Source: a virus (Duplodnaviria; Caudoviricetes). From it: a stretch of DNA of 64,000 nucleotides. The stretch spans positions 128,001-192,000 of IMG/VR virus record IMGVR_UViG_3300037067_003400; one strand, given 5' to 3'. The number at the start of each line of letters is the position of its first letter. Within the stretch, counting starts at the first letter, position 1. The position numbers were made by a program, and so were the translations under genes. The notes beneath the pieces are model-generated. The model saw only the letters and a program-made list of their open reading frames with translations, was not told the origin of the DNA and made no database searches. Below, one piece after another: positions 1-26,243 of this stretch.

Positions 1-460
1 ATCCATTTATGTGTGTCTTTTCTAATTTAATAAACTCTCTTCTGGTTTCAAAATAATCTTCTGGGATAGATTCCCTCTCGAGTTTTAAGTCATTCCTTAT
101 TTTAATCCAGTCCTGTATCTTAATAGCATAAGCAACAACATCTCTTTTTAATACCAGTCGCTTCTTCTTAGTTTTCCTATTGATAGTAGCTACTTTTTTG
201 CTCCTGAAAGAAATAACTACGTAAGCTTTTCCTCCTTCTTTACTACATCTTAGTAACCCCTCCTGTTGATGATCTACTAATCTATCAAAAGGAAAAGAGC
301 TTAATAGCTTTGTGCTCTTTGCTTCAAATGCATAGTATGTTCCATTTACTAAAGCCCAAAAATCATATGGTTGCCTATGTCTTATTACTGCAAGCTTACC
401 ACCATGCCAATCTAAGGCAGTAAATGCATTTGTTATTTCATTTTCTAAGTAGTTTGCCAT
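1..460 (-). CDS. recU: RecU-like Holliday junction resolvase (3' end runs off the window)
   Basis: Manual translation, absent from the ORF track: MANYLENEITNAF...QPYDFWALVNGTYYAFEAKSTKLLSSFPFDRLVDHQQEGL...GGKAYVVISF. Matches the RecU D...FEAK.T...SFP...HQ pattern. Confidence 0.8.
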   Translation of the reverse strand, partial: MANYLENEITNAFTALDWHGGKLAVIRHRQPYDFWALVNGTYYAFEAKSTKLLSSFPFDRLVDHQQEGLLRCSKEGGKAYVVISFRSKKVATINRKTKKKRLVLKRDVVAYAIKIQDWIKIRNDLKLERESIPEDYFETRREFIKLEKTHING

Positions 461-698: not shown

Positions 699-1415
699 TT
701 ATTCCATTCTTTTCGTTCCCAGTTCTTTTTCTTTGCCATGTCTTATATAATCTGTATACATATTGTCATGAAATACGAAGACATCTGTGGTATAATCTAC
801 TGGTTCTATAGGCCCTGCTACTTTAATGAGTCTCCTAAAGTAATCAGCATCTTTTGCAACAGCTAACTCTCTATCTTCAGCGGTAGGAAACTCTGTATCC
901 CAGAGCCCTACTATATTAACAAGATACCTTCTATGCATTATCTGGTTATGATCTAACCAACAGAATGGGTCTGATACTGTACCATAGTTTCCTCTGAAGT
1001 TTACCCCATACCAAGGGGGGCTATTTATAATTTGTTGGTTGCCATAGCAAATACCTATTTCTGGGTTTCTGTCTAAATAGTTAGACATTACTTCAAGCTT
1101 TATATTTCTATAGTAGCAATCATCAGTTAAGTATGTAATGTAATTACTATACCCCTCCACTAAAGCTATATTTATCATATCTGCATAGCGCACTTTTAAA
1201 AGTCTTTCCTCTAATGTAGTGGTAGATATAATTAATTTAATTCTGTCATCAGAATTTGCAAACTTATGTAGGATCTCTTGTGTTTCATCATCACTATTGT
1301 CATCCATTATCCATAAAGTAAAGTCTTCCATAGTTTGTGTTAGTACTGACTTAATAGCTTTTGTAACCATCTTAGGTCTATTGTAACTTGTTAATATTAC
1401 ATCTACTTTACTCAT
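699..1415 (-). CDS. GT2-family glycosyltransferase
   Basis: VILTSYNR...IMDDNSDD...YLTDD GT-A motifs. Confidence 0.85.
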   Translation of the reverse strand: MSKVDVILTSYNRPKMVTKAIKSVLTQTMEDFTLWIMDDNSDDETQEILHKFANSDDRIKLIISTTTLEERLLKVRYADMINIALVEGYSNYITYLTDDCYYRNIKLEVMSNYLDRNPEIGICYGNQQIINSPPWYGVNFRGNYGTVSDPFCWLDHNQIMHRRYLVNIVGLWDTEFPTAEDRELAVAKDADYFRRLIKVAGPIEPVDYTTDVFVFHDNMYTDYIRHGKEKELGTKRME

Positions 1416-2373
1416 TATATACTACCTCACTTCTTATATCACTAAATTTAAAAGGTATCCTTACCCACGGGCTTAGTACACTATCTATTATATCCAAATA
1501 CTTAGGACTTGTAAACACTAAGAAGCTACCACCACACCCACCACCTAATAACTTTCCACCTAAAGCTCCTACTTTCTTTATCATAGTATACTTTTCATCT
1601 ATTTCTGGGAGTGTTATTTCCGAACTTACTTTCTTTTTAGCTGCCCAAGTTTTATCAAGCAAATAACCTACTCGGTCTATCTTATTATTCCAGATAGCTT
1701 CTTTAGCTTCAAGTGCTATCTCTTGTATATCTGTTACATATGTATTATCACACAGACTATTACTATATTGTTTAACTATATCACAAGAATTTCTTTGGAT
1801 ACCTGTATAGTATAGGTGTAGTTTTGATTCTAATTCTTCAACTCCAAAGTATCTTTCTCTTTTGTAACTTCCATCTGTATTTATATCTATAAAGTTTAAT
1901 CCTGAATTAGCTGCAAAGATTTGGTCTTGTATTCCACCAGGTTCTTTTAGTATATGTCGTTCTATCTCTATAGCTTCTTTTACTAATTGCTGAGTCATTA
2001 TAAAGTATTGTCTTTTATACCAGTGTAACGCATTTAGTAAACCTACTACAAAAGAAGAACTTGAACCTAACCCAGATCGGGACGGAAGATCCCCAGAATA
2101 AACTATTTCTAATCTATCAGTGATGCCTAAGTATTCTAAACATGCTTTTATAGCTGGGTGCTCTATATCGTCTACATTATCTACAAGTTCTATGTTTCTG
2201 TATGCTACTCTATAATTATTATTAAAAGCTTTGTTATAGGGTTTCACCATTATATAGCAGTAGTGGTTAATAGCTCCCCCTAATACGCATCCTCCATTTT
2301 TTTCGTACCAGTTTTCATAGTCTGTACATCCACCAAATAAGGATACTCTATAGGGAGTCTTACTTATTAACAT
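1408..2373 (-). CDS. hddA: GHMP kinase, D-glycero-alpha-D-manno-heptose 7-phosphate kinase (HddA)-like
   Basis: KTPYRVSLFGGCTD, PSRSGLGSSS, GIQDQ, GGKLLGGGCGG motifs. Confidence 0.8.
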   Translation of the reverse strand: MLISKTPYRVSLFGGCTDYENWYEKNGGCVLGGAINHYCYIMVKPYNKAFNNNYRVAYRNIELVDNVDDIEHPAIKACLEYLGITDRLEIVYSGDLPSRSGLGSSSSFVVGLLNALHWYKRQYFIMTQQLVKEAIEIERHILKEPGGIQDQIFAANSGLNFIDINTDGSYKRERYFGVEELESKLHLYYTGIQRNSCDIVKQYSNSLCDNTYVTDIQEIALEAKEAIWNNKIDRVGYLLDKTWAAKKKVSSEITLPEIDEKYTMIKKVGALGGKLLGGGCGGSFLVFTSPKYLDIIDSVLSPWVRIPFKFSDIRSEVVYNE

Positions 2374-3035
2374 AATAACTTTTGTGCCTCTCTATAAGAG
2401 TCTGGAGTGCCTATATCAATAAAGGATTCTTGACTATGATACCCATGTAAACATTTGCCAGCATTTATATAAGCAGGGAATATATCTCTTTCTAAAGAAG
2501 ATCTACCATCTGGTATAAAAGAAATGAACTCTGTATTAAGTATATAGATTCCAGCACTTATCCATCTTGATATTGGATTCTTCTCTACAAACTGAACTAT
2601 TCTATTTATATCAAGCACTACAGAACCATATCTACTTTCATCTTTAGCTTGTGTTAGTAGCATGGAACAACTATACTTTTTTCCCCAGTCCACATATTCT
2701 ATCAGGTTACCAAAATAGAAGGTATCCCCATTCATTACAATGAACTTATCATCTGTAATAAATTGTGCTGCATTCTTAACAGCTCCACCAGTTCCTAATG
2801 TCTCTTCTTCTACTATTACTTCTACCCCTGGGATATCTATAACCTGTCTACTTATTTCGTCGGCAAGGTACCCAGCTGCTACTACTATTTTTTCTATACC
2901 TATTTTTAATAGCTCATCTATATTACGCTGTAATACAGACCTTCCAGCTATAACAGTAGCACACTTCTGATGCTTCCCTATTGTTGGTTGAAGTCTCACG
3001 CCAGAACCACCAGCTAATATAATTGCTTGTTTCAT
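2367..3035 (-). CDS. hddC: sugar-1-phosphate nucleotidyltransferase, HddC (heptose-1-P guanylyltransferase)-like
   Basis: AIILAGGSGVRL, EEETLGTGGA, VMNGDT, SLERDIFP, FIDIGTP; adjacent to the HddA-like kinase. Confidence 0.7.
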   Translation of the reverse strand: MKQAIILAGGSGVRLQPTIGKHQKCATVIAGRSVLQRNIDELLKIGIEKIVVAAGYLADEISRQVIDIPGVEVIVEEETLGTGGAVKNAAQFITDDKFIVMNGDTFYFGNLIEYVDWGKKYSCSMLLTQAKDESRYGSVVLDINRIVQFVEKNPISRWISAGIYILNTEFISFIPDGRSSLERDIFPAYINAGKCLHGYHSQESFIDIGTPDSYREAQKLLC

Positions 3036-4129
3036 AATTCGAACCTTTCGAAGAATTTATTTAGTAGTACCTCCGAGGTTAGTTTTTCTTTTACTACATC
3101 TAAGGCATTAGCTGCTAAAGTATTTCTATAGTCTTGGTTATCTAATAGAGTAATACATTTTCTTACTTCTGTTGTATCTCCACTTATGATATGCGGGGGG
3201 TTATCATTATAAAGTAGTATATTTTTTTCATGTGTAAATGTAGCATTAGCCTCTGGTCTATCTGGAACTACCCAAGCTACTACAGGTACACCAGCAATCA
3301 TACTTTCTACTACTCTACTTGTATATCCTAAGAATGTAGATGGTAACCCAAGTACAGCTTTATACTGCCTCATCTCATTCATTAATACAGCTTCTACCCC
3401 AAGACGTATATCTCTATTTTCATCTATGTAGTTTCTCATTATTTTATTAGACATACTATTTGTTATGAATGCTCTACAAGTATTAGTTGCTAATCTATCG
3501 AATTGCTCTGGGAGAGTTGTTTTGTTCTCTGCTGGCTCTGGTATCTCAACTAAGTCCTTTAGTTGCTGTAACATAGAAGCTCTTCGTTGATACTGCTTTC
3601 CAAAGAACAAGCATTTATTTATTTTGTATGGCTTTATTTCTTTTACTAAAAACTTTTCTGGCATGTTGCAAGGAAACCACATAGTATTATTTATATTATG
3701 TGTTCCTAAAAGTTTTATATCATACTCATCTAATGGTAGTACATGTGTAATAAAGTTTAGTTTTCTTAATATATGCTCCATAGATAAACCATAGCATTGT
3801 GATGTAGTCATTGATTCTATCAAGTATGCTACACGTACTGGTATTAGGTCTGCTAATCCAGCTAATATTTGCTCACTTGCTCTTGCATGCATTAGTTCTA
3901 TAAACATCATATCAAACTTTATATCTTTATATAAATAGTTTACCCCATACACTACCCATTGATCTGGATTTATAGTACCATCTCCTTGGACTACTATAGT
4001 ATATACATTGTGCCCAAGTGCTTTTAGCCCGTCCTCTATAGCCCAGTTAGCAGTATAGGCTAATGGTCTCGACTGGTCCCATGTTGGTCTCTCAGTTATA
4101 ATAAGTAACACATTCTTAGAAGTTCCCAC
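3032..4129 (-). CDS. GT-B fold glycosyltransferase (CgeB/Glyco_trans_1_2-like)
   Basis: LKALGHNV N-terminus; SRVVESMIAGVPVV; C-terminal RNTLAANA helix. Confidence 0.65.
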   Translation of the reverse strand: MGTSKNVLLIITERPTWDQSRPLAYTANWAIEDGLKALGHNVYTIVVQGDGTINPDQWVVYGVNYLYKDIKFDMMFIELMHARASEQILAGLADLIPVRVAYLIESMTTSQCYGLSMEHILRKLNFITHVLPLDEYDIKLLGTHNINNTMWFPCNMPEKFLVKEIKPYKINKCLFFGKQYQRRASMLQQLKDLVEIPEPAENKTTLPEQFDRLATNTCRAFITNSMSNKIMRNYIDENRDIRLGVEAVLMNEMRQYKAVLGLPSTFLGYTSRVVESMIAGVPVVAWVVPDRPEANATFTHEKNILLYNDNPPHIISGDTTEVRKCITLLDNQDYRNTLAANALDVVKEKLTSEVLLNKFFERFEL

Positions 4130-5045
4130 GGTGCTCCTCTCCTATTATAGAATAAGCAGTGATAAGTTCTTCTATTCCAGTATCTAAACTACGTTGTGCC
4201 TTGAATCCTTTGTTAGCTAACTTAGTAGAAGATACAATATAATTCCTTTTATCTGGGTCTCTCTTTTCTGTGTTAGTAGTTATCTTAAATGATGGTATGT
4301 GTTCTTTTACTTTGTAGGCAAGGTCTATCTTTGACATATTTATATCATCATTACCCAGGTTGTATACATTATTTTTTACAATGTCATAATTATTTATGCA
4401 GTAGCTAAAACAATCTGCTACATCCTGGATATGTACATAGTTTCTCATGAAGTGCCCTTCGAATATATCAACACCTTTATTAAAGACTGCTTTCCTTACG
4501 AAGTCATTAACTAATAAATCTGTTCTCATTCTCTGGGATACTCCAAATACTGTAGCAAGTCTTAGTACTACACAATTTGTACATTCTACTATAGCATATT
4601 CTGCACACATTTTTGTTTTACCATAGTGCGTAATTGGTTCTAAGCAAGTTTCTTCTGTACATAGTAAACTTCCATCTGTATTTCCGTAACCGCTATTAGT
4701 GTTAGGGAATATAAGCAGCTGGTCTTTACTTTTAATAGATACTATATTTTCTATTACCTTTGAATTTACTATATGAGCTTCGTCTTTGTGTTTGTCACAT
4801 ATTCCTGCACCTACGTATGCTGCTAATGGTATAATCACATCTGATTGTTCTACTAATTTGTCTAAAGTATTATCTACTACTGACATCTTAGCAAAGGCAA
4901 AGCTCTCTCTACCACATAAATGAAGTAAACTATCCTGATTGTAAAGTAGGTTGTCTACTACAGTTACATAGTGCCCCTCATCTAATAATGTTCGTGTTAG
5001 TACCGAGCCTATATAGCCAGCCCCCCCAGTTATAAGTACTCGCAT
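4116..5045 (-). CDS. NAD-dependent nucleotide-sugar epimerase/dehydratase/reductase (extended SDR)
   Basis: TGGAGYIG, YGKTK, LRLATVFG, RNYVHIQDV. Confidence 0.9.
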   Translation of the reverse strand: MRVLITGGAGYIGSVLTRTLLDEGHYVTVVDNLLYNQDSLLHLCGRESFAFAKMSVVDNTLDKLVEQSDVIIPLAAYVGAGICDKHKDEAHIVNSKVIENIVSIKSKDQLLIFPNTNSGYGNTDGSLLCTEETCLEPITHYGKTKMCAEYAIVECTNCVVLRLATVFGVSQRMRTDLLVNDFVRKAVFNKGVDIFEGHFMRNYVHIQDVADCFSYCINNYDIVKNNVYNLGNDDINMSKIDLAYKVKEHIPSFKITTNTEKRDPDKRNYIVSSTKLANKGFKAQRSLDTGIEELITAYSIIGEEHRGNF

Positions 5046-5401
5046 AGTCCAACGTTCCTTTCAGGAGAAATAGCAATAGCCATATCCTCAGTACCATCTG
5101 GTTTCTTATCATTAACTACTATCCTTGGTCCTCTGGGTAGTCCCATTATAAGCATGTCGTATTGAATATGATGGTCTGATAGTAATTGTACAGTTTTCTC
5201 TCTATCAGATTCTTTCCTACCAGTAGTTATTATAATCTTGTAGTTTAATAGGGCATATTTTTCTATGAATTCTCTGACTCCATTTAATAGCCATATTGGT
5301 ACAACATTCTTTGGTGTACCATGTACTTGCCATTCATAGTTACCTGTATGATACAGTAATGTGCCATCTATATCTAAGAATAAAGTTCCTGGATGTTCCA
5401 T
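5030..5401 (-). CDS. small capless HAD-family phosphatase
   Basis: FLDIDGT, IITTGR motifs. Confidence 0.75.
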   Translation of the reverse strand: MEHPGTLFLDIDGTLLYHTGNYEWQVHGTPKNVVPIWLLNGVREFIEKYALLNYKIIITTGRKESDREKTVQLLSDHHIQYDMLIMGLPRGPRIVVNDKKPDGTEDMAIAISPERNVGLCEYL

Positions 5402-6135
5402 TATGTCCTCCTGTTAATTTCTGCTTCTACTGCAGTCCTTAACTTTATTATATCGTTAATTCTATTTTCTGTATACCATTTATAGTAAGCATCTTGCTGG
5501 TCGTTGTATACTTTATTTTGATGATAGTGAGTTGGGTCTCCCCAATGCCTCTTGTATGTTTCATCAAACTCTGATTTATTAGAAGTAGATGCTATAAAAT
5601 GATTATGATTAATTATTACATCTGGTACGTATATGTATAGTCCTAATGGTTCTGTAATATCTTTTAGTATATGATCTTGGAATAGGTGCATTACATCTGG
5701 GTTATGTATCCATCCTATTGTCTTTATAAATCTATAACCAACCATTGGAACTACACAAAGATAATTCCCATGGTATCCGTCACTTGGAAACACTACCCCC
5801 CAGTAACCTATCTCCTTCATAGCATCAAGTAAAATAGTATCCCAGTTTTTAGTTAGTATAGCGTTGTCGTCTGCCAATAAAGTAAAGGCTACATATTTAT
5901 TTATATTTTTATGACATACTTCATTCATCATTACTGGAACTGTTTTATTATCAAAGACTTCATAAGTTACTTTTGTTTTATCAAGAACTTCTTTGTAGTT
6001 GTCTACATCATCACTATCTAATAGAACTACTATATCAGTCATATCTGAAGTAGTTTCCTTTATGTTATTAAGAAGTTCTTCTAACTTATTGGGCCTTCCT
6101 CTTGATGGTATTAAAGCTAATATTTTTTCTTCCAT
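5401..6135 (-). CDS. GT2-like glycosyltransferase
   Basis: LIPSRGRP, LLDSDD, LLADD motifs. Confidence 0.75.
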   Translation of the reverse strand: MEEKILALIPSRGRPNKLEELLNNIKETTSDMTDIVVLLDSDDVDNYKEVLDKTKVTYEVFDNKTVPVMMNEVCHKNINKYVAFTLLADDNAILTKNWDTILLDAMKEIGYWGVVFPSDGYHGNYLCVVPMVGYRFIKTIGWIHNPDVMHLFQDHILKDITEPLGLYIYVPDVIINHNHFIASTSNKSEFDETYKRHWGDPTHYHQNKVYNDQQDAYYKWYTENRINDIIKLRTAVEAEINRRT

Positions 6136-7292
6136 TATATAGCACTCAACTTAATAGCAAGGTCTACTATCTTTTCTGCTTCTAATCCTGGGTAGTTGCC
6201 AATGTAGAAGCCATACTTATGCACGTGCTCCACGTTCTTATACTCCCAGTACTTGAATTTATATTCTGACAGGTAAGGTTGTCTTAGTTGGTTACCACCA
6301 CCAGACATACCACGTCTATATTCTATACCTTCATCTTGTAGTAGCTTAATTGTTTTAGCGAGTAGTTCATCATTAGGTTCCCTTAATAGTAAAGTAAAAG
6401 CATAATTAGAGCAACCTTCTAATTTATAATCAGTGTAGAACTTATCTGAGTTTAAGTTATCTAAGAATAGTTTAAGATTCTTATTTCTAAGCTTTATGTT
6501 CTTATCTAAGTATTGTAATTGTGAAAGTCCTAAGATAGCATTGAGTTCAGTTGATCTCATGTTATATCCAGTAACTGGAAATATAAATTCAGGATGTAAC
6601 TCTGGGAAATCTTTTTCGTAAGCTGCCTTGAGACTATCAGATGTACTTTCACGTAGCATACCATGAGATCGAAGCATTCTTGCTGCATCAATGATAATTG
6701 GCTCCCTTGAAGATATCATACCGCCCTCTATTGTGCTCATATGATGCGCAAAGTAGAAAGAAAAGTTAGATACACTTCCAAAGGTTCCTACTTTCTTTCC
6801 ATTCATAGTAGCACCATGACTCTCACAAACATCTTCAACTAAATAGGTATCTATCTTATCTAAGAACCAAGGCTCTAATGCATTGTATCCTAAAATATGT
6901 GTCAAGAGTATGGCTATTGTGTCATTAGTTTGTGCAGCTATTACTTTGTGTAAATCTAAACCAAGTGTAGTAAGGTCTATGTCTACAAAGATGGGCGTAA
7001 ACCCATTACGTATTACAGATGTAACATCGGATACCCAATTCAAAGGAGAGAGTATTACTTCTCCACCTTTTGGGTAAGCTTCTCGTAGTATGCTAAACGT
7101 AATCATATTAGCTGAAGCTCCAGAGTTAACCATTACATTATAGGGTGTGCCTAACCAATTACCCCAAGCCCCTTCAAACTCTTTTACTTTAGGACCATTA
7201 GTGAGTCTAGGGTCTTCCTGCTTTAGATATTTGATTAAAGTATTAATATCTTTTCTTGTTATGTTACTTCTCATTAATGGCCACGTTAGCAT
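6135..7292 (-). CDS. PLP/PMP-dependent DegT-family enzyme, ColD-like NDP-4-keto-6-deoxysugar C3-dehydratase
   Basis: VNSGASAN, EDVCESHGA, SFYFAHHMSTIEGG (His in place of the catalytic Lys), GYNMR; lacks the E1 GRDCxC iron-sulfur motif. Confidence 0.75.
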   Translation of the reverse strand: MLTWPLMRSNITRKDINTLIKYLKQEDPRLTNGPKVKEFEGAWGNWLGTPYNVMVNSGASANMITFSILREAYPKGGEVILSPLNWVSDVTSVIRNGFTPIFVDIDLTTLGLDLHKVIAAQTNDTIAILLTHILGYNALEPWFLDKIDTYLVEDVCESHGATMNGKKVGTFGSVSNFSFYFAHHMSTIEGGMISSREPIIIDAARMLRSHGMLRESTSDSLKAAYEKDFPELHPEFIFPVTGYNMRSTELNAILGLSQLQYLDKNIKLRNKNLKLFLDNLNSDKFYTDYKLEGCSNYAFTLLLREPNDELLAKTIKLLQDEGIEYRRGMSGGGNQLRQPYLSEYKFKYWEYKNVEHVHKYGFYIGNYPGLEAEKIVDLAIKLSAI

Positions 7293-8002
7293 GTGACAAA
7301 CTCCTTACTTTTAACATTGCCTGTGTCAACCCAATTTGGAAAAGCTCGTGTATATATAGGTATATTCATATGCTCATAGATATCAGTATCGCATGGAGAT
7401 ACTATATTACTTTTTAGTAATTGTTCTGTAGCTTTCCAGAAGGTAGTATAATCATGTATATATGATAGAGCTATATAAGTATCCATATGAGAGTTAACAC
7501 AAGGGTATGTTTTGCTTAGTATTTGTTGTAATAATCCTTTATCATCCTTTATTACTTTAGAGTAGTTACAGTCTACCTCTACATTACATATCCCTATCCA
7601 ATTACGATATACACTTTCTCCTTCGAGAAGAAGTTCTGGTATAACATGTTTGTTAGGAAGTGTATCACAAGAGTTAAAGAAAAAGGGGCATTGTAATTTA
7701 TCTTTAGCACAATTAAGGCTATATGCTAACCCAGACCCCACATCATTATAATTATCTACTTCTACAAATGTAATATCTCTATGTGCATAATTTTTTAGTA
7801 AATAAGTTTTTACTTGGCTACCACACCATCCTAATGTAATTACTATAGAAGTATCTTTATTATAACTGTCTATTATAGAATCTATTATTATTTTTCCATT
7901 TACTTTTAATAAAGCTTTATTGGTAGATTTTGTTAGTTCACCTAATCTACTTCCTATTCCAGATGTTGGTATTAGTAATTTATAATTCATAGTAATTACC
8001 AT
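7286..8002 (-). CDS. nucleotidyltransferase (LicC/NTP_transferase-like)
   Basis: IPTSGIGSRL...NKALLKV, WVDTGN. Confidence 0.75.
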   Translation of the reverse strand: MVITMNYKLLIPTSGIGSRLGELTKSTNKALLKVNGKIIIDSIIDSYNKDTSIVITLGWCGSQVKTYLLKNYAHRDITFVEVDNYNDVGSGLAYSLNCAKDKLQCPFFFNSCDTLPNKHVIPELLLEGESVYRNWIGICNVEVDCNYSKVIKDDKGLLQQILSKTYPCVNSHMDTYIALSYIHDYTTFWKATEQLLKSNIVSPCDTDIYEHMNIPIYTRAFPNWVDTGNVKSKEFVTC

Positions 8003-9024
8003 CCATGTGTTAGTCTATCTATTGTTACTTCTAAACTATTGTTTGCTTTGTTAGCATTTAAAATACTTGCTGTTTCAATAGCTTTAGTTATTGTAGCAAT
8101 AACTTCTTGCTTATCTACTATATTAGGTATGGAAAACATACTTTCATTAGTTACTCCTCCGCCAATGTGACTAAAGAATATAGACATATCTAAATCTGAT
8201 GCCATCTTTATAAGATCTTCTACTTGTTTATAAGTAGACTTCATTATAATAGAATTTATATTAAGTCTCCAGTTAGGATGTAGCTTTGCAGTTTCACTTA
8301 ACACTTTTAAATTCGAGTACAATTTATCCCAGGAAAAATGTCTTATGCTTTCATAAGTTTCTTTCATACCATCTACTCTTACAGTAATGAATAGGTTATC
8401 TATCTTTTCAAGTGTTTCTAAATTTTCTGGGATAAGAGTTCCGTTAGTTGTTAAATAGATACATGTTCCTTTAGTGTCTTCTTCGGAGACTAACTTTAAT
8501 AAGTCTTTACCATCAGGACTTACAAAAGATTCTCCACCTATAAAACCGAAGCGGTCTAATTTTTCCCAGCCTATTTCATGTACTACATTAATTATGTTTT
8601 CCACAGGAAATAGCTTTGTTGCTCTTCTATCCCTTGGGCACATCTTACAAGATAGATTACATATCTCAGAATGTGCTACATACAATTCTATAGGAGGGTG
8701 TTTTAATGTTACCATACCATACTGATATTCTTTATTGACAGTGTTAAAATACTCTATTGTTTCTTGTGTCTTGTTAATAGAGAATAGTGGTATGTTTTCT
8801 CCAATACCTAATATGTCATGATGATTATTATATTTTTGGTTTGGGCAGTTAGAACATTTATTTAGTCTTAGGTTCTTATATGTAGGCCCATTCCAAATTC
8901 TCATTACTTCTTCTAATGATTTTGGTGTAAGTCCAAATTGTATATTGGAATGGTAGCAACAAGGGCCACCTGTATTATTAATAGTCATGGATAATGTAGT
9001 CCATGGAAAAGAACAACTTATCAT
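7996..9024 (-). CDS. radical SAM protein with N-terminal SPASM/twitch-like Cys module
   Basis: CNLSCKMC, GGE, TTNGT; N-terminal CSFPW..PCC..WNG..CSNC. Confidence 0.85.
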   Translation of the reverse strand: MISCSFPWTTLSMTINNTGGPCCYHSNIQFGLTPKSLEEVMRIWNGPTYKNLRLNKCSNCPNQKYNNHHDILGIGENIPLFSINKTQETIEYFNTVNKEYQYGMVTLKHPPIELYVAHSEICNLSCKMCPRDRRATKLFPVENIINVVHEIGWEKLDRFGFIGGESFVSPDGKDLLKLVSEEDTKGTCIYLTTNGTLIPENLETLEKIDNLFITVRVDGMKETYESIRHFSWDKLYSNLKVLSETAKLHPNWRLNINSIIMKSTYKQVEDLIKMASDLDMSIFFSHIGGGVTNESMFSIPNIVDKQEVIATITKAIETASILNANKANNSLEVTIDRLTHGW

Positions 9025-9923
9025 TTTATATCCTTTAGTTTATTTTCTATATCATTCCAAAATGTATTAGGTGATGCAATAGCTGGTAGTTTTGTGTATC
9101 CATTTTTTTGTATTGTAGTTAGTAAGGTGCTATCATTTACATATGTAACAAGTTCATTAATATTATTAAATGCTATATAATCTACCATTGGTTTTAGAAA
9201 CTTCTCAGTAAAACTACATTGAGGTTCTGCCAATACTGTACCGCACATTAGTACTTCTGATACCCTACCTTTCCTATGTGGTATGTTATCGCATGCCCAT
9301 GGAAAGTTTAAAGCTATCTTTGATCTTTGTAGTATATTAGCATAGGTTTCTATTGGCTTTAGCCCATCTCTTTTTCTATCTGATATTAATACGTTTAAGT
9401 TGTTATCTAAGTTTTTTAAAATACTAAACCTATCTTCTCGTATACTTCCTACAAAACTTATATCTATATCTTTTTCAACATTTATAGGTTGAAAATATTG
9501 TTGTGAGTGTGGGTGTGTTGTAAATAATACTCTACCCGGTTTCTTAGCTATTTTCTCATAATCAGGGTTATCCATTACTATTACACAATCACATAAGCTT
9601 TCTAACATTTTTGCTTGTTTTATATTTTCATCTGAAATAGAATCCCATACTATTCCAAAGGTTGGTATACCATAATTTTTTCTTACTCTTACTATATTTA
9701 CTGGTTTATATGGGTAGTGTGAGTACACTATCGTATCTGGTTTAAAATTTTCACAGGCCTCATTAATTTTTGTTATATAATCTTCTGCTTCATCATAAAA
9801 TATAGTATGTATTTCCAAGCCAGCTACAGTAGTGGCTGGTTGATAGATAGCTAAGTATGGTGTGGATAGCATACTATTTCTATTACAGTCTGTATATTTA
9901 TCTAATATTAATAAGGCCTTCAT
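9021..9923 (-). CDS. CgeB/Glyco_trans_1_2-like glycosyltransferase
   Basis: KDIDISFVGS, SKIALNF, KGRVSEVLMCG. Confidence 0.75.
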   Translation of the reverse strand: MKALLILDKYTDCNRNSMLSTPYLAIYQPATTVAGLEIHTIFYDEAEDYITKINEACENFKPDTIVYSHYPYKPVNIVRVRKNYGIPTFGIVWDSISDENIKQAKMLESLCDCVIVMDNPDYEKIAKKPGRVLFTTHPHSQQYFQPINVEKDIDISFVGSIREDRFSILKNLDNNLNVLISDRKRDGLKPIETYANILQRSKIALNFPWACDNIPHRKGRVSEVLMCGTVLAEPQCSFTEKFLKPMVDYIAFNNINELVTYVNDSTLLTTIQKNGYTKLPAIASPNTFWNDIENKLKDIK

Positions 9924-9926
9924 ATA

Positions 9927-11699
9927 TTAATCTACTATTATGTTAGCTTCGTACTCATCCCTTGGAAGTTTAGGAGCCTGGTCATGTATTGGTGTGCCCC
10001 AACCTAATTTAGGTGAGTACTCATAAAAGTCTTTCATATCTAAGTTGATTACTACTGGTCCTACCATTTCAAGTATCTCAGGTAGATACTCTAACTCTTT
10101 ATGATTAGCAAGTGTTACCGTCTTTAATCCAAAAGCTTTAGCTACTTTTACTACATCTGGGAATGCAAGCCCATGATCAGTATCGGCTCCAGCAAAGTTA
10201 CTATCACAGTTTGTTTGTCTAAAAGCATGTGTGATCCCATAACCACTGTTGTTGTAAATAAACAATTTAACATTTAGGTTCTTCATATTAAGAGTTGCAA
10301 GTTCCTGTATGTTAAAGTTTAAACCCCCATCTCCATTTAGACAAATGACTCTTTTACCAGTTGCAATAGCTGCCCCTATAGAAGCAGGTAGAGCATACCC
10401 TAGTGAAGCATTACCGTTGTTAGCAAATAGAATCTGTCCTTCCTTTGCCTTAAATGCTTGTGCTGTAGTGACACCATTTCCACCAATATCTGTCACAATA
10501 ATATCATCTTTAGAAAGTACTTTAGATAATTCCTCTATGAATACATATGGATTAATATGTTCTTTCTGCTCATAGTATTTAGGTAATACCACTGGGTACT
10601 TCGCCTTCCACTCTTTTACTTTGTCTACCCACCATTGTATAGATGGTACTTTAATTTCTACTGCGTTCATTGTCTTCACAAATGTTTTAGCATCTGAGAC
10701 TATTGGGATATCTGGTGTTACCATATTATATCTTAGTTCTGCCTCATCTACATTTACAAAGACTTTCTTTGCATTCTGAGCAAACGTAGGTACTTCCCCT
10801 CCCGTAATCCTTCCAGAAATTCTTGAGCCAATAGCAATAAGTAAATCAGAATTTTGTATGCCAAAGTTTCTACCGTCTCCTCCGAATGTTCCAACTCTTC
10901 CGCCGAATAATGGGTGTGTGTCATCACAGAAGTCTACTGCATTCCAGGTTTCAAAGAAAGGTATGCCCCATTTTTCTATAAGGTCTAATACTTCTCTCTT
11001 ATTCCACTTTACACCACCACCTACTAATATAGCTGGTCTCTTAGAGTTTTCTATGAACTCTTTTATTTTATCTATATCCTTTTTAGAGATTTCATAGTTA
11101 GGTTCTGGTGACATAGTATAGAAACCACTTACTGGGTATGTTCCGGTTTCTGTAAAGTGGAGTCCAAAGAGTGTGAAGTCATATATATCTTGATGCTGTA
11201 TATTCATTGGTATATCTAACAGCACTGGGCCAGGTCTTCCTTCTTGTGCTATTCTCCAGGCTTTTTCTAACTCTTCTTTGATGTCATCTTTCTTTTTAAT
11301 CTGCACAGCATACTTAGTAATTGGTTCCACTATAGAAACTACATCAGTTTCCTGGAATCCTACCTGTCTGAGTTTAGGATTAGTATTTATAAAGTTAGAG
11401 TTAATTTGTCCTGTTAAGAATATAGCTGGTGTGCCATCATAATAGCATGTGGCTATTCCAGTTACTAAGTTCTCTGCTCCAGGTCCTGAAGTTGCAATCA
11501 TAACTGACATTCTACCAGAAGCTTTCTGGTAACCATCAATCATAAATGCTCCTGCCTGTTCATGTAATGGACAGTGATATGGCAGTCCTGCATCAGCTAC
11601 TGCACATATTAAGTGAGCACATGCTGCGCCATCAATTAAGAAAACATCCTTGATTTCTTTTTCTTTTAAGAAACCTGCTACGTAATTTGCTACTTTCAT
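9927..11699 (-). CDS. ThDP-dependent enzyme of acetolactate-synthase type (YerE-like by context)
   Basis: HEQAG, TSGPG, GRPGPVLLDIP, GDGG...NN ThDP motif; embedded among nucleotide-sugar genes with no small regulatory subunit. Confidence 0.85.
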   Translation of the reverse strand: MKVANYVAGFLKEKEIKDVFLIDGAACAHLICAVADAGLPYHCPLHEQAGAFMIDGYQKASGRMSVMIATSGPGAENLVTGIATCYYDGTPAIFLTGQINSNFINTNPKLRQVGFQETDVVSIVEPITKYAVQIKKKDDIKEELEKAWRIAQEGRPGPVLLDIPMNIQHQDIYDFTLFGLHFTETGTYPVSGFYTMSPEPNYEISKKDIDKIKEFIENSKRPAILVGGGVKWNKREVLDLIEKWGIPFFETWNAVDFCDDTHPLFGGRVGTFGGDGRNFGIQNSDLLIAIGSRISGRITGGEVPTFAQNAKKVFVNVDEAELRYNMVTPDIPIVSDAKTFVKTMNAVEIKVPSIQWWVDKVKEWKAKYPVVLPKYYEQKEHINPYVFIEELSKVLSKDDIIVTDIGGNGVTTAQAFKAKEGQILFANNGNASLGYALPASIGAAIATGKRVICLNGDGGLNFNIQELATLNMKNLNVKLFIYNNSGYGITHAFRQTNCDSNFAGADTDHGLAFPDVVKVAKAFGLKTVTLANHKELEYLPEILEMVGPVVINLDMKDFYEYSPKLGWGTPIHDQAPKLPRDEYEANIIVD

Positions 11700-13144
11700 C
11701 TATTGAGCTCCCGTTGTGTAAGTTGTTTTACATTTTCAAATATTGTTTCCCCAAACTTATCTTTAATCATATTAAGATAGTCTGGGTTTCTAAAGTATAT
11801 ATTAAAAGCTTTGTCTCTAAACTTTACCACTTTTTCTCCAGAGAGATGTTTAGTAGGTAATGGCTTTGAATATTTAGAGTATTGTGTATATCCTTCCCAT
11901 GACTCTGGGAGGTTTTCCTTTGGTGTGTCCTCATAGAGTTTACTACCTGGGTAGGCCATGGCACAATTAAAGTTAGCCCACTCTGCATTGATGTCTATAG
12001 CCATATCAAGAGTAGCTTGCATAGTTTTATAGTTATCTTCTGGTAGCCCAAAGATGTAGTTTGCACATATATAGGCGCCTGTGTCTTGTAGAATTTTTAC
12101 ACCCTTCTTTATTTTATCTAAAGAAGATTTCTTATTTACATCTGCAAGTACTACTTCACTACCAGACTCTATACCAATGGCAAACCATTTAATACCAGCC
12201 TTAATTAATTTCTTTGTAAGTTCTTCATTTAAGGTATCTAATCTTGCATATGCCCAGAAGTTAATATTATAATTTCTTTTTATAAGCCCATCACAGATAT
12301 CATTGATTCTTTTAGTATCCATTACAAATAGCTCGTCTGCTATCTTTATATTCTTTATGCCATATTTTTTATGGAGTACATCTATCTCTCTTAGTACCCA
12401 ATCTGCAGAGAAGGTTCTATAAGAAGGTCTTGTCATTCCACGTGTATACTCTCCTTCTTTAAATGGAGCTTGTATACAGCAGAAGCTACAAGACATAGGA
12501 CATCCTAAAGATGTATAGATAGACGCATACGAATTGATAGTATCTGGATTCTCGAAACAATGCCAGTTGTGTGCTCTATACTTAGTCATGTCTAATAGGT
12601 GCCACGGTAATGAAGGGTATACTTCATCTAAGTTTTCTATAAGAGCTGCTGTGCATCTAGAAGAACATGTGTCACCAAATCTATTAATATATATAAGCCC
12701 AGGAACATTAGTTATATCTACACCATTTAATAGTGCAGCTATAGTTATTGGTCCTTCTCCTGTGCAGCAGTAGTCTGCTTTAGTTTCTAATAGTGACTTT
12801 CTTGGTAAAGCAGCTATGTGCCCCCCAACAAGTAGCACCTTTATCGAGCCTCCCAGTTGTTGTACTAATTCTTTTGTGTAAGGCATCAACTGAGTAGATG
12901 CAGATGGGTTATGTCCATATACTACAATTACTACCAGCTTTGGGTTTATGTCTGTTATCTTAGCAGCACAAGTTGCTGGGTCATAGTTGTTAGCATGTGC
13001 ATCTATTATTTGTACAGTGTGCCTATTCTTAAGTATATTAGATGCAAGCATGAGACACCAGATAGGCGGTTCTTTAGCCATTAGGTCATGAGCTAAATTG
13101 TCATACATCTTAGTTGCATTTGGATTTACTAAAACTACATCCAC
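11696..13144 (-). CDS. cobalamin-binding radical SAM protein (class B methyltransferase-like)
   Basis: N-terminal B12-binding domain (VGGH...GEG), SLGCPMSCSFC, GIESG, IFGLP. Confidence 0.85.
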   Translation of the reverse strand: MDVVLVNPNATKMYDNLAHDLMAKEPPIWCLMLASNILKNRHTVQIIDAHANNYDPATCAAKITDINPKLVVIVVYGHNPSASTQLMPYTKELVQQLGGSIKVLLVGGHIAALPRKSLLETKADYCCTGEGPITIAALLNGVDITNVPGLIYINRFGDTCSSRCTAALIENLDEVYPSLPWHLLDMTKYRAHNWHCFENPDTINSYASIYTSLGCPMSCSFCCIQAPFKEGEYTRGMTRPSYRTFSADWVLREIDVLHKKYGIKNIKIADELFVMDTKRINDICDGLIKRNYNINFWAYARLDTLNEELTKKLIKAGIKWFAIGIESGSEVVLADVNKKSSLDKIKKGVKILQDTGAYICANYIFGLPEDNYKTMQATLDMAIDINAEWANFNCAMAYPGSKLYEDTPKENLPESWEGYTQYSKYSKPLPTKHLSGEKVVKFRDKAFNIYFRNPDYLNMIKDKFGETIFENVKQLTQRELNR

Positions 13145-13764
13145 TGGATTTCTCCGTTACGAACTACATCCCAGACATTAATTAGAACTCCAATACCACA
13201 GTGACACTGATTAGGTTCACTTATAAATTCTTTGTATTCAAACTTATCTTTGTATTCATTCCAGAATAAATCTACTTTACAGAACTCTCCTTGATGTAGG
13301 TGTGGTAGTATGTCATGAAATACTACCAGCCCATCCTTTGCTACTAATGGTCCATACATTAGAAAGTCTTGTTCTATTCCTTTATGTGTATGGTCACCAT
13401 CTAAGAAGATGAAGTCATATTCTGGAGAGAACTTCTTTATAGTTTCAAGAGTTCCTGGGTTATGTGAGTCCGCCTGAAGAAAATGAAAGTCTATATCAAA
13501 GTTCTTTACTGTATTTTCATGTAGTCTATTCTTCTTTATATCACAGGCTATCACAAGTGCTCCAGGCTGTGAGTGTTTAGCCCACTGGAATAGTGTGCCA
13601 CCCTGGTCAGTGCCTACTTCTAATACTCTTGTTGGTTTTAGTTCTTGATACATGTGTAACAAAGCTTCAAACTCTTCCTTCATTTGATAAGGCATAACAT
13701 ATTGAGGACAGTCTGGATCTTTGAATGTATACTCTATAACCATTAGGCATCCCCACAAATACAA
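13135..13764 (-). CDS. class I SAM-dependent methyltransferase (Methyltransf_24-like)
   Basis: VLEVGT, YDFIFLDGDH, GLVVFHD. Confidence 0.85.
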   Translation of the reverse strand: MYLWGCLMVIEYTFKDPDCPQYVMPYQMKEEFEALLHMYQELKPTRVLEVGTDQGGTLFQWAKHSQPGALVIACDIKKNRLHENTVKNFDIDFHFLQADSHNPGTLETIKKFSPEYDFIFLDGDHTHKGIEQDFLMYGPLVAKDGLVVFHDILPHLHQGEFCKVDLFWNEYKDKFEYKEFISEPNQCHCGIGVLINVWDVVRNGEIQWM

Positions 13765-14141
13765 GCTAATATATCTATAGATACTTCGTTGCTATTACTA
13801 ACACATAGCACATCTTTCATTTCTGGAAACTGATTATGTAAAGCCACAACCTTACACTCTTCTGGTAATAGTCCCATGTTCTTAGCACAGGTAGCTAATA
13901 CATACTCATAACTACTTGTTTCTACACTTGACACGATACTATTAACTAAATGATTTATATTTAGTTTATTAATTATATTTTGCATTACTCCTAAAGGTTC
14001 TTTAGAGTATACACATTTCTGTAATCCAAGCAAAGCAAGTTCTATAAAGAGTCTTGACTTATCTTTATTTTCTTTTATCTCAGATATATTAACAGGTATA
14101 TCTGTTATAGTATCTAATCCAAAGATTACTCCCTTAATCAT
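13743..14141 (-). CDS. degenerate HAD-like protein
   Basis: MIKGVIFGLD resembles HAD motif I with the nucleophilic Asp replaced by Gly; GLLPEEC is HAD-like. Confidence 0.5.
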   Translation of the reverse strand: MIKGVIFGLDTITDIPVNISEIKENKDKSRLFIELALLGLQKCVYSKEPLGVMQNIINKLNINHLVNSIVSSVETSSYEYVLATCAKNMGLLPEECKVVALHNQFPEMKDVLCVSNSNEVSIDILACICGDA

Positions 14142-14779
14142 TTTTTCCCTCCAAGCTGTTTTACTGGTACAGCTTTTTTAATAAGTTCCTCAAAGTTTTT
14201 GTTATTGTTATCTGTCATCCCATAATGTAAGTTTAGTATTTCACCGTCAGCTATTCTTCCTTGTGCGGCAGGGTCTGGGGTACATAATTTCCTATCACTA
14301 CTTAGATTGATTCTTAATGTAGATGAAAAGATTATTGGCTTAGAATCTAAAGCAAAACAAACACCCTCCTTATAGACATTATATATCATCTTGTCTATGG
14401 GGGGTGTTACGTCACTAACCATTTCATATTGTGTTGGCTTTATTATTGTTGCGCCGAGTTGCTGATGCCTTCTTAATCTTTTTAGTAGGTCTTTGTGAAA
14501 AATAAACTCATTAGGCTCTGTTACTATAACCCAGTCTACAGCTTTAGAATGTATTTGATACATTGTGTTCATTAAGTTTGTTATAGTTTGCTCATTTATA
14601 GTGTTTAGTTTTACATTCTTTAAAATTGCATTAGGATATTGAGCAACTAAGTCTACTATGTTGTCTGTAGAATCTGCATCAAATATGAACATCTTTTCAG
14701 TAAACTTGCTATAATGCCTAAGCCACTGCTCTAACATAGCAGCATTGTTGTAGCAATGCGTATATGCATGAACTATCAT
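14138..14779 (-). CDS. GT2-like glycosyltransferase (Glyco_tranf_2_4-like)
   Basis: THCYN...WLRHY...FDADSTD...DWVIVTEPNEF (DxD motif altered). Confidence 0.65.
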   Translation of the reverse strand: MIVHAYTHCYNNAAMLEQWLRHYSKFTEKMFIFDADSTDNIVDLVAQYPNAILKNVKLNTINEQTITNLMNTMYQIHSKAVDWVIVTEPNEFIFHKDLLKRLRRHQQLGATIIKPTQYEMVSDVTPPIDKMIYNVYKEGVCFALDSKPIIFSSTLRINLSSDRKLCTPDPAAQGRIADGEILNLHYGMTDNNNKNFEELIKKAVPVKQLGGKK

Positions 14780-14815
14780 TAATTGTCCTCCAACAAGAAT
14801 AAAATTTATTCTCTA

Positions 14816-14827
14816 ATTATATTATAC
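14816..14827 (-). promoter_or_regulatory. putative promoter of the glycan operon (GTATAATATAAT)
   Basis: Tandem TATAAT immediately downstream of a terminator and upstream of the GGAGGA RBS of the first operon gene. Confidence 0.55.
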
Positions 14828-14837
14828 AAATTGACAC

Positions 14838-14866
14838 AAAAAAATTCCAGTATTAACATACTGGAA
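14838..14866 (-). terminator. intrinsic terminator after the helicase
   Basis: TTCCAGTAT-GTTA-ATACTGGAA hairpin followed by T7 on the minus strand. Confidence 0.75.
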
Positions 14867-20068: not shown

Positions 20069-20142
20069 TGGAGCCCCATCTAAGAATTGAACTCAGGTCC
20101 ACGGTTTACAAAACCGTTGCTTTACCACTAAGCTAAAAGGGC
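20069..20142 (-). tRNA. tRNA-Thr(UGU)
   Basis: GCCCTTT acceptor, loop TT-TGT-AA, TTCAATT T-loop, CCA. Confidence 0.9.
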
Positions 20143-20508
20143 GTCTTGTTTCTTTATATATTTATTTAGTACTGATTCTATTTCTTTAGAAAAGGTATCG
20201 AAGGTAGCATCTACTATACCAGTGCCTTCACAATATATACAGGTAACTGAGTAATGTCCAGCATGGCATTCTCCATGCCGCCATTTACTTTCATTACACT
20301 CAGGACACTTAACCTTTAGAGCTGGCATAATAGGGTGATCCTCTTGGTTATACATACTTAGTAATTCTTTAATTTCTGTTTCTAAGCTTCTTCTTACTAA
20401 TCCACCTTGACAAGCGTCACAAGTTCTTGTATAAGAACCAGCCTCAACTACTCCTGATATAACACCTGTACCATTACATTTACTACATGTTCTCATATTG
20501 TCCCCCAC
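20128..20508 (-). CDS. DnaJ-type (CxxCxGxG) zinc-finger protein without J domain
   Basis: CSKCNGTG, CDACQGG, CPEC, CIYCEGTG. Confidence 0.7.
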   Translation of the reverse strand: MGDNMRTCSKCNGTGVISGVVEAGSYTRTCDACQGGLVRRSLETEIKELLSMYNQEDHPIMPALKVKCPECNESKWRHGECHAGHYSVTCIYCEGTGIVDATFDTFSKEIESVLNKYIKKQDALLA

Positions 20509-21828: not shown

Positions 21829-22089
21829 TTATCTAACCATACGACTTAAACAATCTAACTTGTTATTTATAGATTTTAAAGTAGCTATTACTTCAGTAAG
21901 TAGGGTTCCTATAGTATTTCCTTCTTCATCATAAGGAACATATTTTTTAACTATAGCCTGTTCTTGTTGGTTATTTACTGGGACTAATCCTTTTCCTCCA
22001 CAACTTTTACAGTCTGCTTGTTTGCCTTTACATTCTGGGCAGGACTTAAAAAGTTTACTATTTAGTAATCCATTATTTAGCATAGTCAT
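21829..22089 (-). CDS. DnaJ-type zinc-finger protein with C-terminal coiled coil
   Basis: CPECKG...CKSCGGKG. Confidence 0.65.
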   Translation of the reverse strand: MTMLNNGLLNSKLFKSCPECKGKQADCKSCGGKGLVPVNNQQEQAIVKKYVPYDEEGNTIGTLLTEVIATLKSINNKLDCLSRMVR

Positions 22090-26040: not shown

Positions 26041-26243
26041 CTTGATATTACTTCTGTAAATCCACCCTCTCCATTTGGTACCATTTCTACTACCATCTCA
26101 GTAGGTTCTACTGGTTGTGGTAGTTCCTCTGGAGGTACTGGTATTTCTACAGTAACATATGTTCTGTTTTTTAATCCAGTTAATCCTGTAAATTCTTTTG
26201 TAGCGTTCATAGTGTATCTAAACAGCTCCTGCGTATTTTCCAC
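26037..26243 (-). CDS. hypothetical protein
   Basis: 68-aa ORF overlapping both neighbours. Confidence 0.5.
   Translation of the reverse strand: MENTQELFRYTMNATKEFTGLTGLKNRTYVTVEIPVPPEELPQPVEPTEMVVEMVPNGEGGFTEVISR

Follow-up and report, generated by a model that had tools for sequence, protein, structure and literature searches.

We describe a predicted sugar-biosynthesis and glycosyltransfer operon of 16 genes in a 64,000-nucleotide stretch of phage DNA (the window), which corresponds to bases 128001-192000 of an IMG/VR virus record of 210,951 bp with a CheckV completeness of 98%. All 16 open reading frames (ORFs) are on the minus strand and run from window position 14779 to 699, and neighboring frames overlap by 1-22 nt or stand 3 nt apart. 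The tightly coupled operon proposed in an earlier note on this DNA (the original prediction) was thus confirmed, as was its placement between phage replication genes, which we identified as an intein-bearing DnaB helicase upstream and RecU downstream. Domain assignment of the 16 genes with Pfam, NCBIfam and PHROGs also bore out the enzyme content that had been listed (Table 1). The cluster occupies a mid-genome position (128.7-142.8 kb in 211 kb) and is bordered by phage genes at either end; the GC content is 30-38% throughout the window, cluster included.

A promoter belonging to the operon alone, downstream of a terminator, had been predicted as well. A terminator-like hairpin and a TATAAT hexamer are indeed present ahead of the first gene. 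However, 61 sigma-70-like motifs were found in the region while 72.5 were expected from shuffled sequence. Because these motifs were not enriched we do not claim a promoter, and this part of the prediction is unproven.

Table 1. Features of the operon, its flanks and related genes elsewhere in the phage genome. Positions refer to the window unless the genome is named. HAD, haloacid dehalogenase; SDR, short-chain dehydrogenase/reductase; ThDP, thiamine diphosphate; SAM, S-adenosylmethionine; PLP, pyridoxal phosphate; NDP, nucleoside diphosphate.
Feature	Position	Strand	Basis or remark
RecU	2-460		downstream flank of operon
GT2_a, family-2 glycosyltransferase	699-1415	minus	Glycos_transf_2 2.9e-19
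HddA-like GHMP sugar kinase	1408-2373	minus	NF049969 HddA 1.1e-35
NT1, ManC/HddC-like sugar-1-phosphate nucleotidyltransferase	2367-3035	minus	NTP_transferase 1.8e-29; mannose-1-P guanylyltransferase 2.9e-35; HddC 1.9e-25
GT1_b, GT-B (GT4-like) glycosyltransferase	3032-4129	minus	AlphaFold2 model, pLDDT 86; Foldseek: MshA, BshA, Gtf3
Extended SDR, predicted Cj1427-like NDP-heptose C4-dehydrogenase	4116-5045	minus	2.5e-84 to PDB 6VO6/6VO8
Small capless HAD phosphatase, GmhB-role candidate	5030-5401	minus	Acid_phosphat_B 3.5e-7; HAD_PNKP 2.2e-5; DIDGT motif
GT2_c, phage-type glycosyltransferase	5401-6135	minus	phrog_14945 1.9e-30
DegT, predicted ColD-type PLP-dependent NDP-4-keto-sugar 3-dehydrase	6135-7292	minus	DegT 3e-57
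NT2, weak second nucleotidyltransferase	7286-8002	minus	NTP_transf_3 6.8e-4; Arch_glmU N-terminal part 1.9e-10; phrog_3980 2.6e-10
Radical SAM with N-terminal twitch/SPASM domain	7996-9024	minus	Radical_SAM 1e-15; SPASM 8e-5; NF033640 2e-24; CxxxCxxC at residue 122
GT_d, putative glycosyltransferase (Glyco_trans_1_2, WaaS/CpsH-like)	9021-9923	minus	Pfam 1e-5; NF053598 1.8e-7
Predicted YerE-like ThDP-dependent carboligase	9927-11699	minus	three TPP domains (Pfam N, M, C)
B12-binding (class B) radical SAM	11696-13144	minus	B12-binding PF02310 1.1e-9; Radical_SAM PF04055 7.4e-17; CxxxCxxC at residue 215
SAM methyltransferase, CmcI / rhamnosyl O-methyltransferase-like	13135-13764	minus	Methyltransf_24 2.4e-13; RMNT_CmcI 2.6e-10
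132-aa HAD-fold protein, degenerate motif I	13743-14141	minus	Atlas structure, TM 0.86 to HAD hydrolases
GT2_e, Glyco_tranf_2_4	14138-14779	minus	Pfam 5.9e-11
TATAAT and GGAGG ribosome-binding site	14826-14821 and 14791-14787	minus	ahead of first gene; read from sequence
Terminator-like hairpin	14845-14866 (14866-14845)	minus	9-bp stem, 4-nt loop, then TTTTTTT; just after DnaB stop codon
DnaB helicase with LAGLIDADG intein	14877-17270	minus	upstream flank of operon
RmlA (glucose-1-phosphate thymidylyltransferase)	22073-22951	minus	2e-110 to solved RmlA; PF00483 2.6e-71
Additional GT2 outside operon	26218-27156	minus	Glycos_transf_2 2.9e-12
Glycosyltransferase in virion module	49573-50742	minus	phrog_7162 GT 2.6e-44; C-terminal SEC-C/SWIM-like metal-binding motif
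UXS-like SDR (UDP-glucuronate decarboxylase)	genome 28212-29231 (L168:8212-9231)	minus	3.5e-40
RmlB-type 4,6-dehydratase, intein-split	genome 92688-94814 (L171:12688-14814)		TIGR01181 6e-74

The clearest indication of the sugar backbone came from the extended SDR. It is about 55% identical to PDB entries 6VO6 and 6VO8 over residues 2-304, i.e. its full length, while the next solved SDR matched with 4e-21 or worse. We take 6VO6 to be Cj1427, the GDP-heptose C4-dehydrogenase of Campylobacter jejuni, with which the deposited name agrees. By this similarity the phage SDR is an apparent orthologue of Cj1427 and would form a 4-keto group while the C6 hydroxyl is kept.

The DegT-family protein was closest among solved structures to the 3-dehydrase ColD (3e-47; E1 2.7e-41). 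Its His183 is located at the position of the PLP-binding lysine of aminotransferases and aligns with His188 of ColD, so that the histidine substitution seen in the original prediction is real. Because the protein has only two cysteines in 385 aa, an E1-type 2Fe-2S site is not expected, and on these three grounds we read it as a ColD-type dehydrase free of Fe-S clusters, which supports the C3 deoxygenation that had been proposed. In vitro, Cj1427 and the PLP-dependent HS:5 C3-dehydratase turn GDP-heptose into GDP-3-deoxy-4-keto-heptose, for which m/z 616.08 was reported (PMC10680097). By analogy the phage pair should yield the same product, the SDR oxidizing C4 and the ColD-type enzyme then taking off the C3 hydroxyl. 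Because a Cj1427-type SDR supplies the 4-keto group, a 4,6-dehydratase is not needed and the C6 hydroxyl would be retained. The 3,6-dideoxy sugar of the original prediction is therefore not what we predict; and the missing 4,6-dehydratase, which it had pointed out for the window, is not required for a heptose route, while an RmlB exists elsewhere in the genome.

Entry into such a route would be provided by the kinase, the small HAD phosphatase and a nucleotidyltransferase. The best four PDB matches of the kinase were heptose-phosphate kinases or entries named only as putative sugar kinases. With D-glycero-D-manno-heptose 7-phosphate supplied by a GmhA of the host, the operon would make GDP-heptose. 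GmhA had not been visible in the window, and a search with PF13580 extended this result to the entire 211-kb genome and to the related phage G001. On the other hand, two cellular cassettes of the same type, from Methanoperedens and Chloroflexota (L083 and L111), carry GmhA (SIS_2, 4e-31 and 2e-29) and a GmhB-like HAD, and therefore the module is tied to heptose. Taken together with the SDR and the relatives of the kinase, these cassettes support the heptose backbone that had been offered as a possibility. A weak SIS-like gene was also seen in a further genome (G002).

The ThDP-dependent enzyme gave as its best PDB matches 8rph (1e-87, 298 bits) and 5ahk (1.2e-80, 275 bits), followed by acetohydroxyacid synthase (AHAS; 2e-71, 244 bits). 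Entry 5ahk is presumably PpYerE. Entry 8rph is JanthE (PMC12188165), and according to a 2025 review JanthE and PpYerE are the only YerE-like structures. The ThDP motif G456-D457-G458 is invariant. The original prediction had named clustering with canonical IlvB, together with AHAS activity only, as an outcome that would refute it; in a maximum-likelihood tree built without YerE itself, IlvB and IlvG of Salmonella and IlvB of Staphylococcus formed a separate clade with 100/100 support, outside of which the window enzyme was placed. The AHAS small subunit (ilvN) was not found in the genome, and matches of about 30% identity in the deposited-phage database were ordinary ilv operons in bacterial sequence. 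A YerE-like enzyme would take an acyl unit from pyruvate or a longer alpha-keto acid, add it to the C4 ketone and leave a tertiary alcohol branch. The top structure matches, and a DegT neighbor that is of the histidine type in nearly all related loci (see below), support the C4 branching proposed before. As with the other catalytic steps, we infer the reaction from homologies and gene linkages, which themselves are observed.

Next to the ThDP gene lies that of the B12-binding radical SAM enzyme, one of two radical SAM enzymes that had been predicted and that both show the CxxxCxxC motif. Its best NCBIfam match was HpnJ (1.2e-40; 140 bits vs an equivalog cut-off of 578 bits) and the BchE models were also near, both far below their cut-offs. 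The assignment as a carbon methylase made in the original prediction is not established; the enzyme would modify the ThDP product, either methylating a carbon or acting by radical C-C chemistry. Further tailoring of the sugar would fall to the twitch radical SAM enzyme, the relatives of which are almost all viral, and to the O-methyltransferase.

The conservation of the cluster was apparent from a second IMG/VR phage, G001 (216,899 bp, 93% complete). It has five flanking genes in common with the window phage at 34-52% identity (RecU 39%) and carries 13 of the 16 operon genes, likewise between DnaB and RecU but in a different order: DnaB, RmlB-like, HAD-like, HAD, Cj1427-like SDR (64%), nucleotidyltransferase, GT2_c, GT1_b, kinase, methyltransferase, four GT_d paralogues, twitch radical SAM, SDR, B12 radical SAM (46%), ThDP (53%), RmlC-like, methyltransferase, two SDRs, DegT (57%) and RecU. 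The two ThDP enzymes are sisters with 99/97 support. Identities were 59% for the small HAD, 53% for the methyltransferase and 38% for the twitch radical SAM enzyme; GT2_e had no homologue in G001. In the record the cluster is split over the contig ends (L003, L185), the B12 radical SAM gene occupying 56-1468 and the ThDP gene lying near 216.3 kb. Because it runs from one end to the other, the 'linear' record probably is a circularly permuted complete genome. Its DnaB homologue (323 aa) is free of an intein.

A third example was found in a large viral contig of 142.8 kb (L004), in which a DnaB-like gene is followed by most of the cassette. The search for syntenic clusters in other large phage contigs that the original prediction had suggested was thus successful. 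The small HAD is 48% identical there, and in these relatives its gene adjoins the SDR or a SIS-like gene; GT2_c has homologues in G001, L004 and two further contigs (L006, L041). Since the diverged phage G001 has the cluster at the same DnaB-RecU locus, mis-assembly is excluded. The cluster has long been maintained in a jumbo-phage lineage and is not a recent acquisition. Among deposited phages a megablast search with the whole cluster gave no match, and in 50,697 records neither the ThDP enzyme nor the Cj1427-like SDR nor the B12 radical SAM enzyme had an orthologue. DegT alone has a relative there, a histidine-type protein of 39% identity in a glycan cluster of Synechococcus phage ACG-2014f.

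The 132-aa protein encoded near the start of the operon, which the original prediction had left unnamed, has no Pfam match. It shares 25% identity (E 6e-5) with the product of a HAD-like gene of 197 aa in the G001 cluster. The latter had been considered as a GmhA candidate, which we rejected.

Relatives of the ThDP enzyme with about 50% identity occur in many uncultured prokaryotes. A scan of viral contigs with the single protein had given no match; an alignment query then confirmed 568 stretches among species-representative genomes and 132 within IMG/VR. We fetched and compared 161 loci with a ThDP relative. A DegT gene was located within 10 kb in 128 of them, and the best DegT match was histidine-type in 125 of these 128. 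The Cj1427-like SDR was present in 83 loci, mostly at 42-56% identity, although about one fifth, at only 22-32%, probably represent different SDRs. The B12 radical SAM enzyme was found in 76 loci (41-48% identity in cellular cassettes), the kinase in 52 and the nucleotidyltransferase in 41. The core of kinase, nucleotidyltransferase, SDR, DegT, ThDP enzyme and B12 radical SAM enzyme recurs in Nitrospira, Rhodospirillales, bacteria of the candidate phyla radiation, DPANN and other archaea. In 23 loci, all labelled as Nitrospira-type (two named Nitrosospira), a giant protein is encoded whose first domain is homologous to GT1_b. One IMG/VR 'viral' contig of 130,604 bp (L006/L108) turned out to be the same sequence as a contig of a Prochlorococcus single-cell genome, and because of this some IMG/VR matches to the cassette are probably cellular genomic islands.

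A variant of the cassette lies on plasmid pDMC1 of S. magneticus RS-1 (L183, 24-38 kb). It has an E1 alpha/beta ThDP pair in place of the YerE type and keeps the B12 radical SAM enzyme. About 5 kb away is a gene for L-2-hydroxyglutarate oxidase (lhgO), which fits a dehydrogenase of the Cj1427 type because L-2-hydroxyglutarate is the by-product of the latter and would be recycled by the oxidase. Enzymes of this type work by ping-pong oxidation, with alpha-ketoglutarate and tightly bound NADH. A NUDIX gene and a gene for a phospholipid carrier-dependent glycosyltransferase are also nearby.

The five glycosyltransferases of the original prediction were all recovered, GT2_c by phrog_14945 and GT1_b by its AlphaFold model. 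GT1_b matches the giant protein encoded downstream of the Nitrospira cassettes in its N-terminal domain (E down to 1e-43) and by this similarity appears to be the transferase that is conserved with the cassette. The genome encodes three glycosyltransferases beyond the operon, one of them beside a baseplate wedge gene (48448-49554; phrog_6, 1.2e-46). A hydropathy scan revealed no convincing membrane protein among the 16, the SDR and the ThDP enzyme each having one 19-residue window just at the threshold, and no large polytopic protein in the genome, the only ORFs with several transmembrane segments being 79-96 aa long. An initiating phosphoglycosyltransferase, Wzx/Wzy or an ABC transporter was not found, and hence the cluster does not classify as an O-antigen or capsule locus. 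Because membrane proteins are lacking, export of a polysaccharide by the phage alone is unlikely. The thymidylate-synthase-family hydroxymethylase (PF00303) is also missing from the genome, while ThyX is present, which makes DNA an unlikely target. Thus, of the acceptors named in the original prediction, virion proteins and the host surface are the more probable and DNA became improbable. A scan of virion proteins for Ser/Thr-rich tails as O-glycosylation sites showed nothing distinctive. We favor a phage protein as acceptor because export machinery is absent and a transferase is encoded next to the baseplate gene; our tentative ranking is virion, then host surface, then DNA.

On balance we lean slightly to the view that the operon is a pathway, complete but for GmhA, that makes a rare heptose-derived sugar and transfers it, most likely onto a virion-bound phage protein. 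Five soluble glycosyltransferases would assemble a short hetero-oligosaccharide in the cytoplasm, for which RmlA, RmlB and the UXS-like enzyme probably would supply other sugars. The glycan would then go onto a phage protein destined for the virion or, less likely, onto a lipid-linked glycan of the host.

Several points speak against this view. The acceptor is its weakest point, and soluble glycosyltransferases can also act on lipid-linked intermediates of the host. The operon is located in the replication module and not in the structural module. GmhA is absent from the phage, because of which the heptose route would rely on the host. Kinase (124 bits vs 600 for the HddA equivalog), nucleotidyltransferase and HAD all score below the curated equivalog cut-offs, and their substrates follow from relatives and context only. 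That 6VO6 is Cj1427 is presumed, in agreement with the deposited name. A YerF-type reductase is absent from the operon. Finally, the dehydrase and the ThDP enzyme could instead be fed with dTDP-4-keto-6-deoxyglucose made by RmlA and RmlB.

The strongest alternative, which we consider rather unlikely, keeps the chemistry but directs the glycan to the host envelope, i.e. to lipopolysaccharide (LPS), capsule or S-layer glycan, by way of host carriers, flippases and ligases. The phage might thereby block superinfection or keep its progeny from sticking to debris. The cellular relatives are found in loci of the surface-glycan type, including that of pDMC1 with its carrier-dependent glycosyltransferase; GT2_a weakly resembles GtrB-like families of O-antigen conversion; and acceptors linked to undecaprenyl pyrophosphate are often used by soluble GT2 and GT4 enzymes. 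Yet an initiating phosphoglycosyltransferase, a flippase, a polymerase and large membrane proteins of any kind are lacking in the phage, and one of its glycosyltransferases is embedded in the baseplate module. No integrase or lysogeny gene was seen in the flanks of the cluster, although no search was aimed at them.

A somewhat more doubtful alternative concerns the backbone. The ColD-like and YerE-like enzymes might act on the dTDP-4-keto-6-deoxyglucose made by RmlA and RmlB, which would result in a 3,6-dideoxy, yersiniose-like branched hexose in agreement with the original prediction, while a heptose without a branch would be made separately by kinase, nucleotidyltransferase and SDR. The phage does encode a canonical RmlA and RmlB, and G001 has an RmlB-like gene inside its cluster and an RmlC-like gene after the ThDP gene. 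However, RmlA is 7 kb and RmlB 35 kb away from the operon. In cells the ThDP enzyme, histidine-type DegT and B12 radical SAM enzyme travel with the SDR, kinase and nucleotidyltransferase, sometimes with GmhA and GmhB, and without RmlA/RmlB. Furthermore, DegT is nearer to the GDP-specific ColD than to dehydrases of the CDP- or TDP-type. With a heptose as the branched sugar, RmlA and RmlB probably supply a second sugar.

No RmlC was found in the genome. An intein of 362 aa with LAGLIDADG motifs interrupts the RmlB gene within the catalytic Ser-Thr-Asp-Glu motif, directly after the Ser. Its first residue is Cys and its last two are Gly-Asn, followed by Thr; Pfam did not recognize the insert as an intein at 1e-3. 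The UXS-like SDR could be a YerF-like branch reductase instead of a xylose synthase. Its relatives (45-49% identity) are encoded directly downstream of the ThDP gene in Bacillota and cyanobacterial-type loci (L150, L161).

Hypermodification of phage DNA, i.e. a glycan on a modified base that serves to evade restriction, appears very improbable. It would fit the location of the operon between replication and recombination genes (DnaB, RecU); T4 alpha-glucosyltransferase was among the GT-B Foldseek matches at rank 42; and diverse glycans are known to be transferred by DNA glycosyltransferases of phages (Pyle et al. 2024, as cited in PMC12619734). On the other hand, the genome has ThyX and no hydroxymethylase of the thymidylate-synthase family, the GT-B matches are generic GT4 enzymes, and no other base-modification gene was seen. 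That the cluster is an artefact, either a host LPS or capsule locus mis-joined to phage DNA or a ThDP enzyme which is an ordinary acetolactate synthase auxiliary gene, is hardly credible, for although the closest protein relatives are cellular and many of the IMG/VR contigs with relatives may be cellular as well (as L006), the cluster is mid-contig between phage genes with uniform GC, the ThDP enzyme is outside the AHAS clade without an ilvN, and the same locus in the diverged G001 effectively refutes it, in support of the phage origin assumed in the original prediction.

A more speculative idea concerns the product itself. Caryose is a 4,8-cyclo-3,9-dideoxy-nonose, the origin of which was called unknown in a review (PMC9092360). 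It corresponds to a 3-deoxyheptose to which a C2 unit is joined through both C4 and C7. We regard it as quite unlikely that the conserved core of dehydrogenase, dehydrase, ThDP enzyme and HpnJ-like B12 radical SAM enzyme is a pathway to a carbocyclic nonose of the caryose type. The ThDP step would then make the bond at C4 and the B12 radical SAM enzyme would close the ring at C7. With the caryose producer Trinickia (Burkholderia) caryophylli in mind, plasmids were searched by tblastn with the B12 radical SAM enzyme as query, which returned no Trinickia record. If the idea is true, phages would carry a carbocyclic sugar as their own decoration, and its biosynthesis in hundreds of uncultured microbes would be revealed by the cassette.

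The remaining content of the window consists of virion genes, among them a baseplate wedge gene, virion structural proteins and an endolysin-like domain. Between the last glycosyltransferase gene and RecU there is a 55-aa ORF on the minus strand (469-636) with two CxxC pairs, zinc-ribbon-like, and just upstream of it, at 696-669, is a TTTACA-16-TATGAT motif. A GIY-YIG nuclease gene (27314-27964, minus strand) adjoins the additional GT2 gene, and a small protein with DnaJ-type CXXCXGXG zinc-finger repeats is encoded at 20128-20508 on the minus strand.

If our preferred reading is correct, a tailed phage spends about 7% of its 211-kb genome on a rare, branched higher sugar and its glycan, and virus-encoded glycosylation as known from mycobacteriophages and giant viruses reaches a far more elaborate chemistry. 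The core joins heptose oxidation and 3-deoxygenation of the Campylobacter kind, ThDP branching of the YerE type and a cobalamin radical SAM step, and its product is undescribed. The pathway is widespread among cells and among several lineages of phages. Being compact, soluble and free of introns, the phage copies are a convenient start for reconstitution and for the identification of the sugar.

Each of the enzyme types is already known, as are glycan clusters in phages; the combined pathway appears to be new. A literature search for a pathway of heptose and YerE chemistry, or for the combined pathway in phages, found no published description. With the capsular GDP-heptose pathways of C. jejuni (PMC10680097) the phage shares the Cj1427-type SDR and the histidine-type dehydrase, and its kinase, HAD and nucleotidyltransferase are candidate counterparts of HddA, GmhB and HddC. 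In contrast to them it lacks GmhA, the cupin epimerase, the C4-reductase and capsule export genes, and a ThDP carboligase and radical SAM enzymes would take over its 4-keto intermediate. The pathway of yersiniose A (DdhA-D, YerE, YerF) and the systems of ErwE, MMAR_2332, JanthE and PpYerE (PMC9306805, PMC12247030) likewise have a 3-dehydrase gene beside an AHAS-family ThDP enzyme. Yet the predicted backbone in the phage is GDP-heptose and not a CDP-6-deoxyhexose, its dehydrase is of the ColD type (PLP and glutamate) and not of the E1/E3 type (Fe-S), the 4-keto group would come from a dehydrogenase and not from a 4,6-dehydratase, YerF is missing, and a B12 radical SAM enzyme is encoded next door. 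With the carbocycle-forming enzymes HpnJ and calditol synthase and the C-methylases GenK and Fom3 the latter has in common the B12-binding domain and the CxxxCxxC core, while its substrate would be, unlike theirs, a branched nucleotide heptose.

Among viruses, O-glycosylation of capsid and tail tube is described for mycobacteriophages (Freeman et al. 2023, as cited in PMC12619734). The mycobacteriophage systems, the rare-sugar clusters of giant viruses and the 'LPS' clusters of cyanophages resemble the phage operon in that nucleotide-sugar synthesis and glycosyltransferases are combined in a virus; in ACG-2014f the histidine-type DegT is encoded among epimerases, glycosyltransferases and a methyltransferase. 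Compared to these known viral glycosylation systems the predicted chemistry of the operon is much more elaborate.

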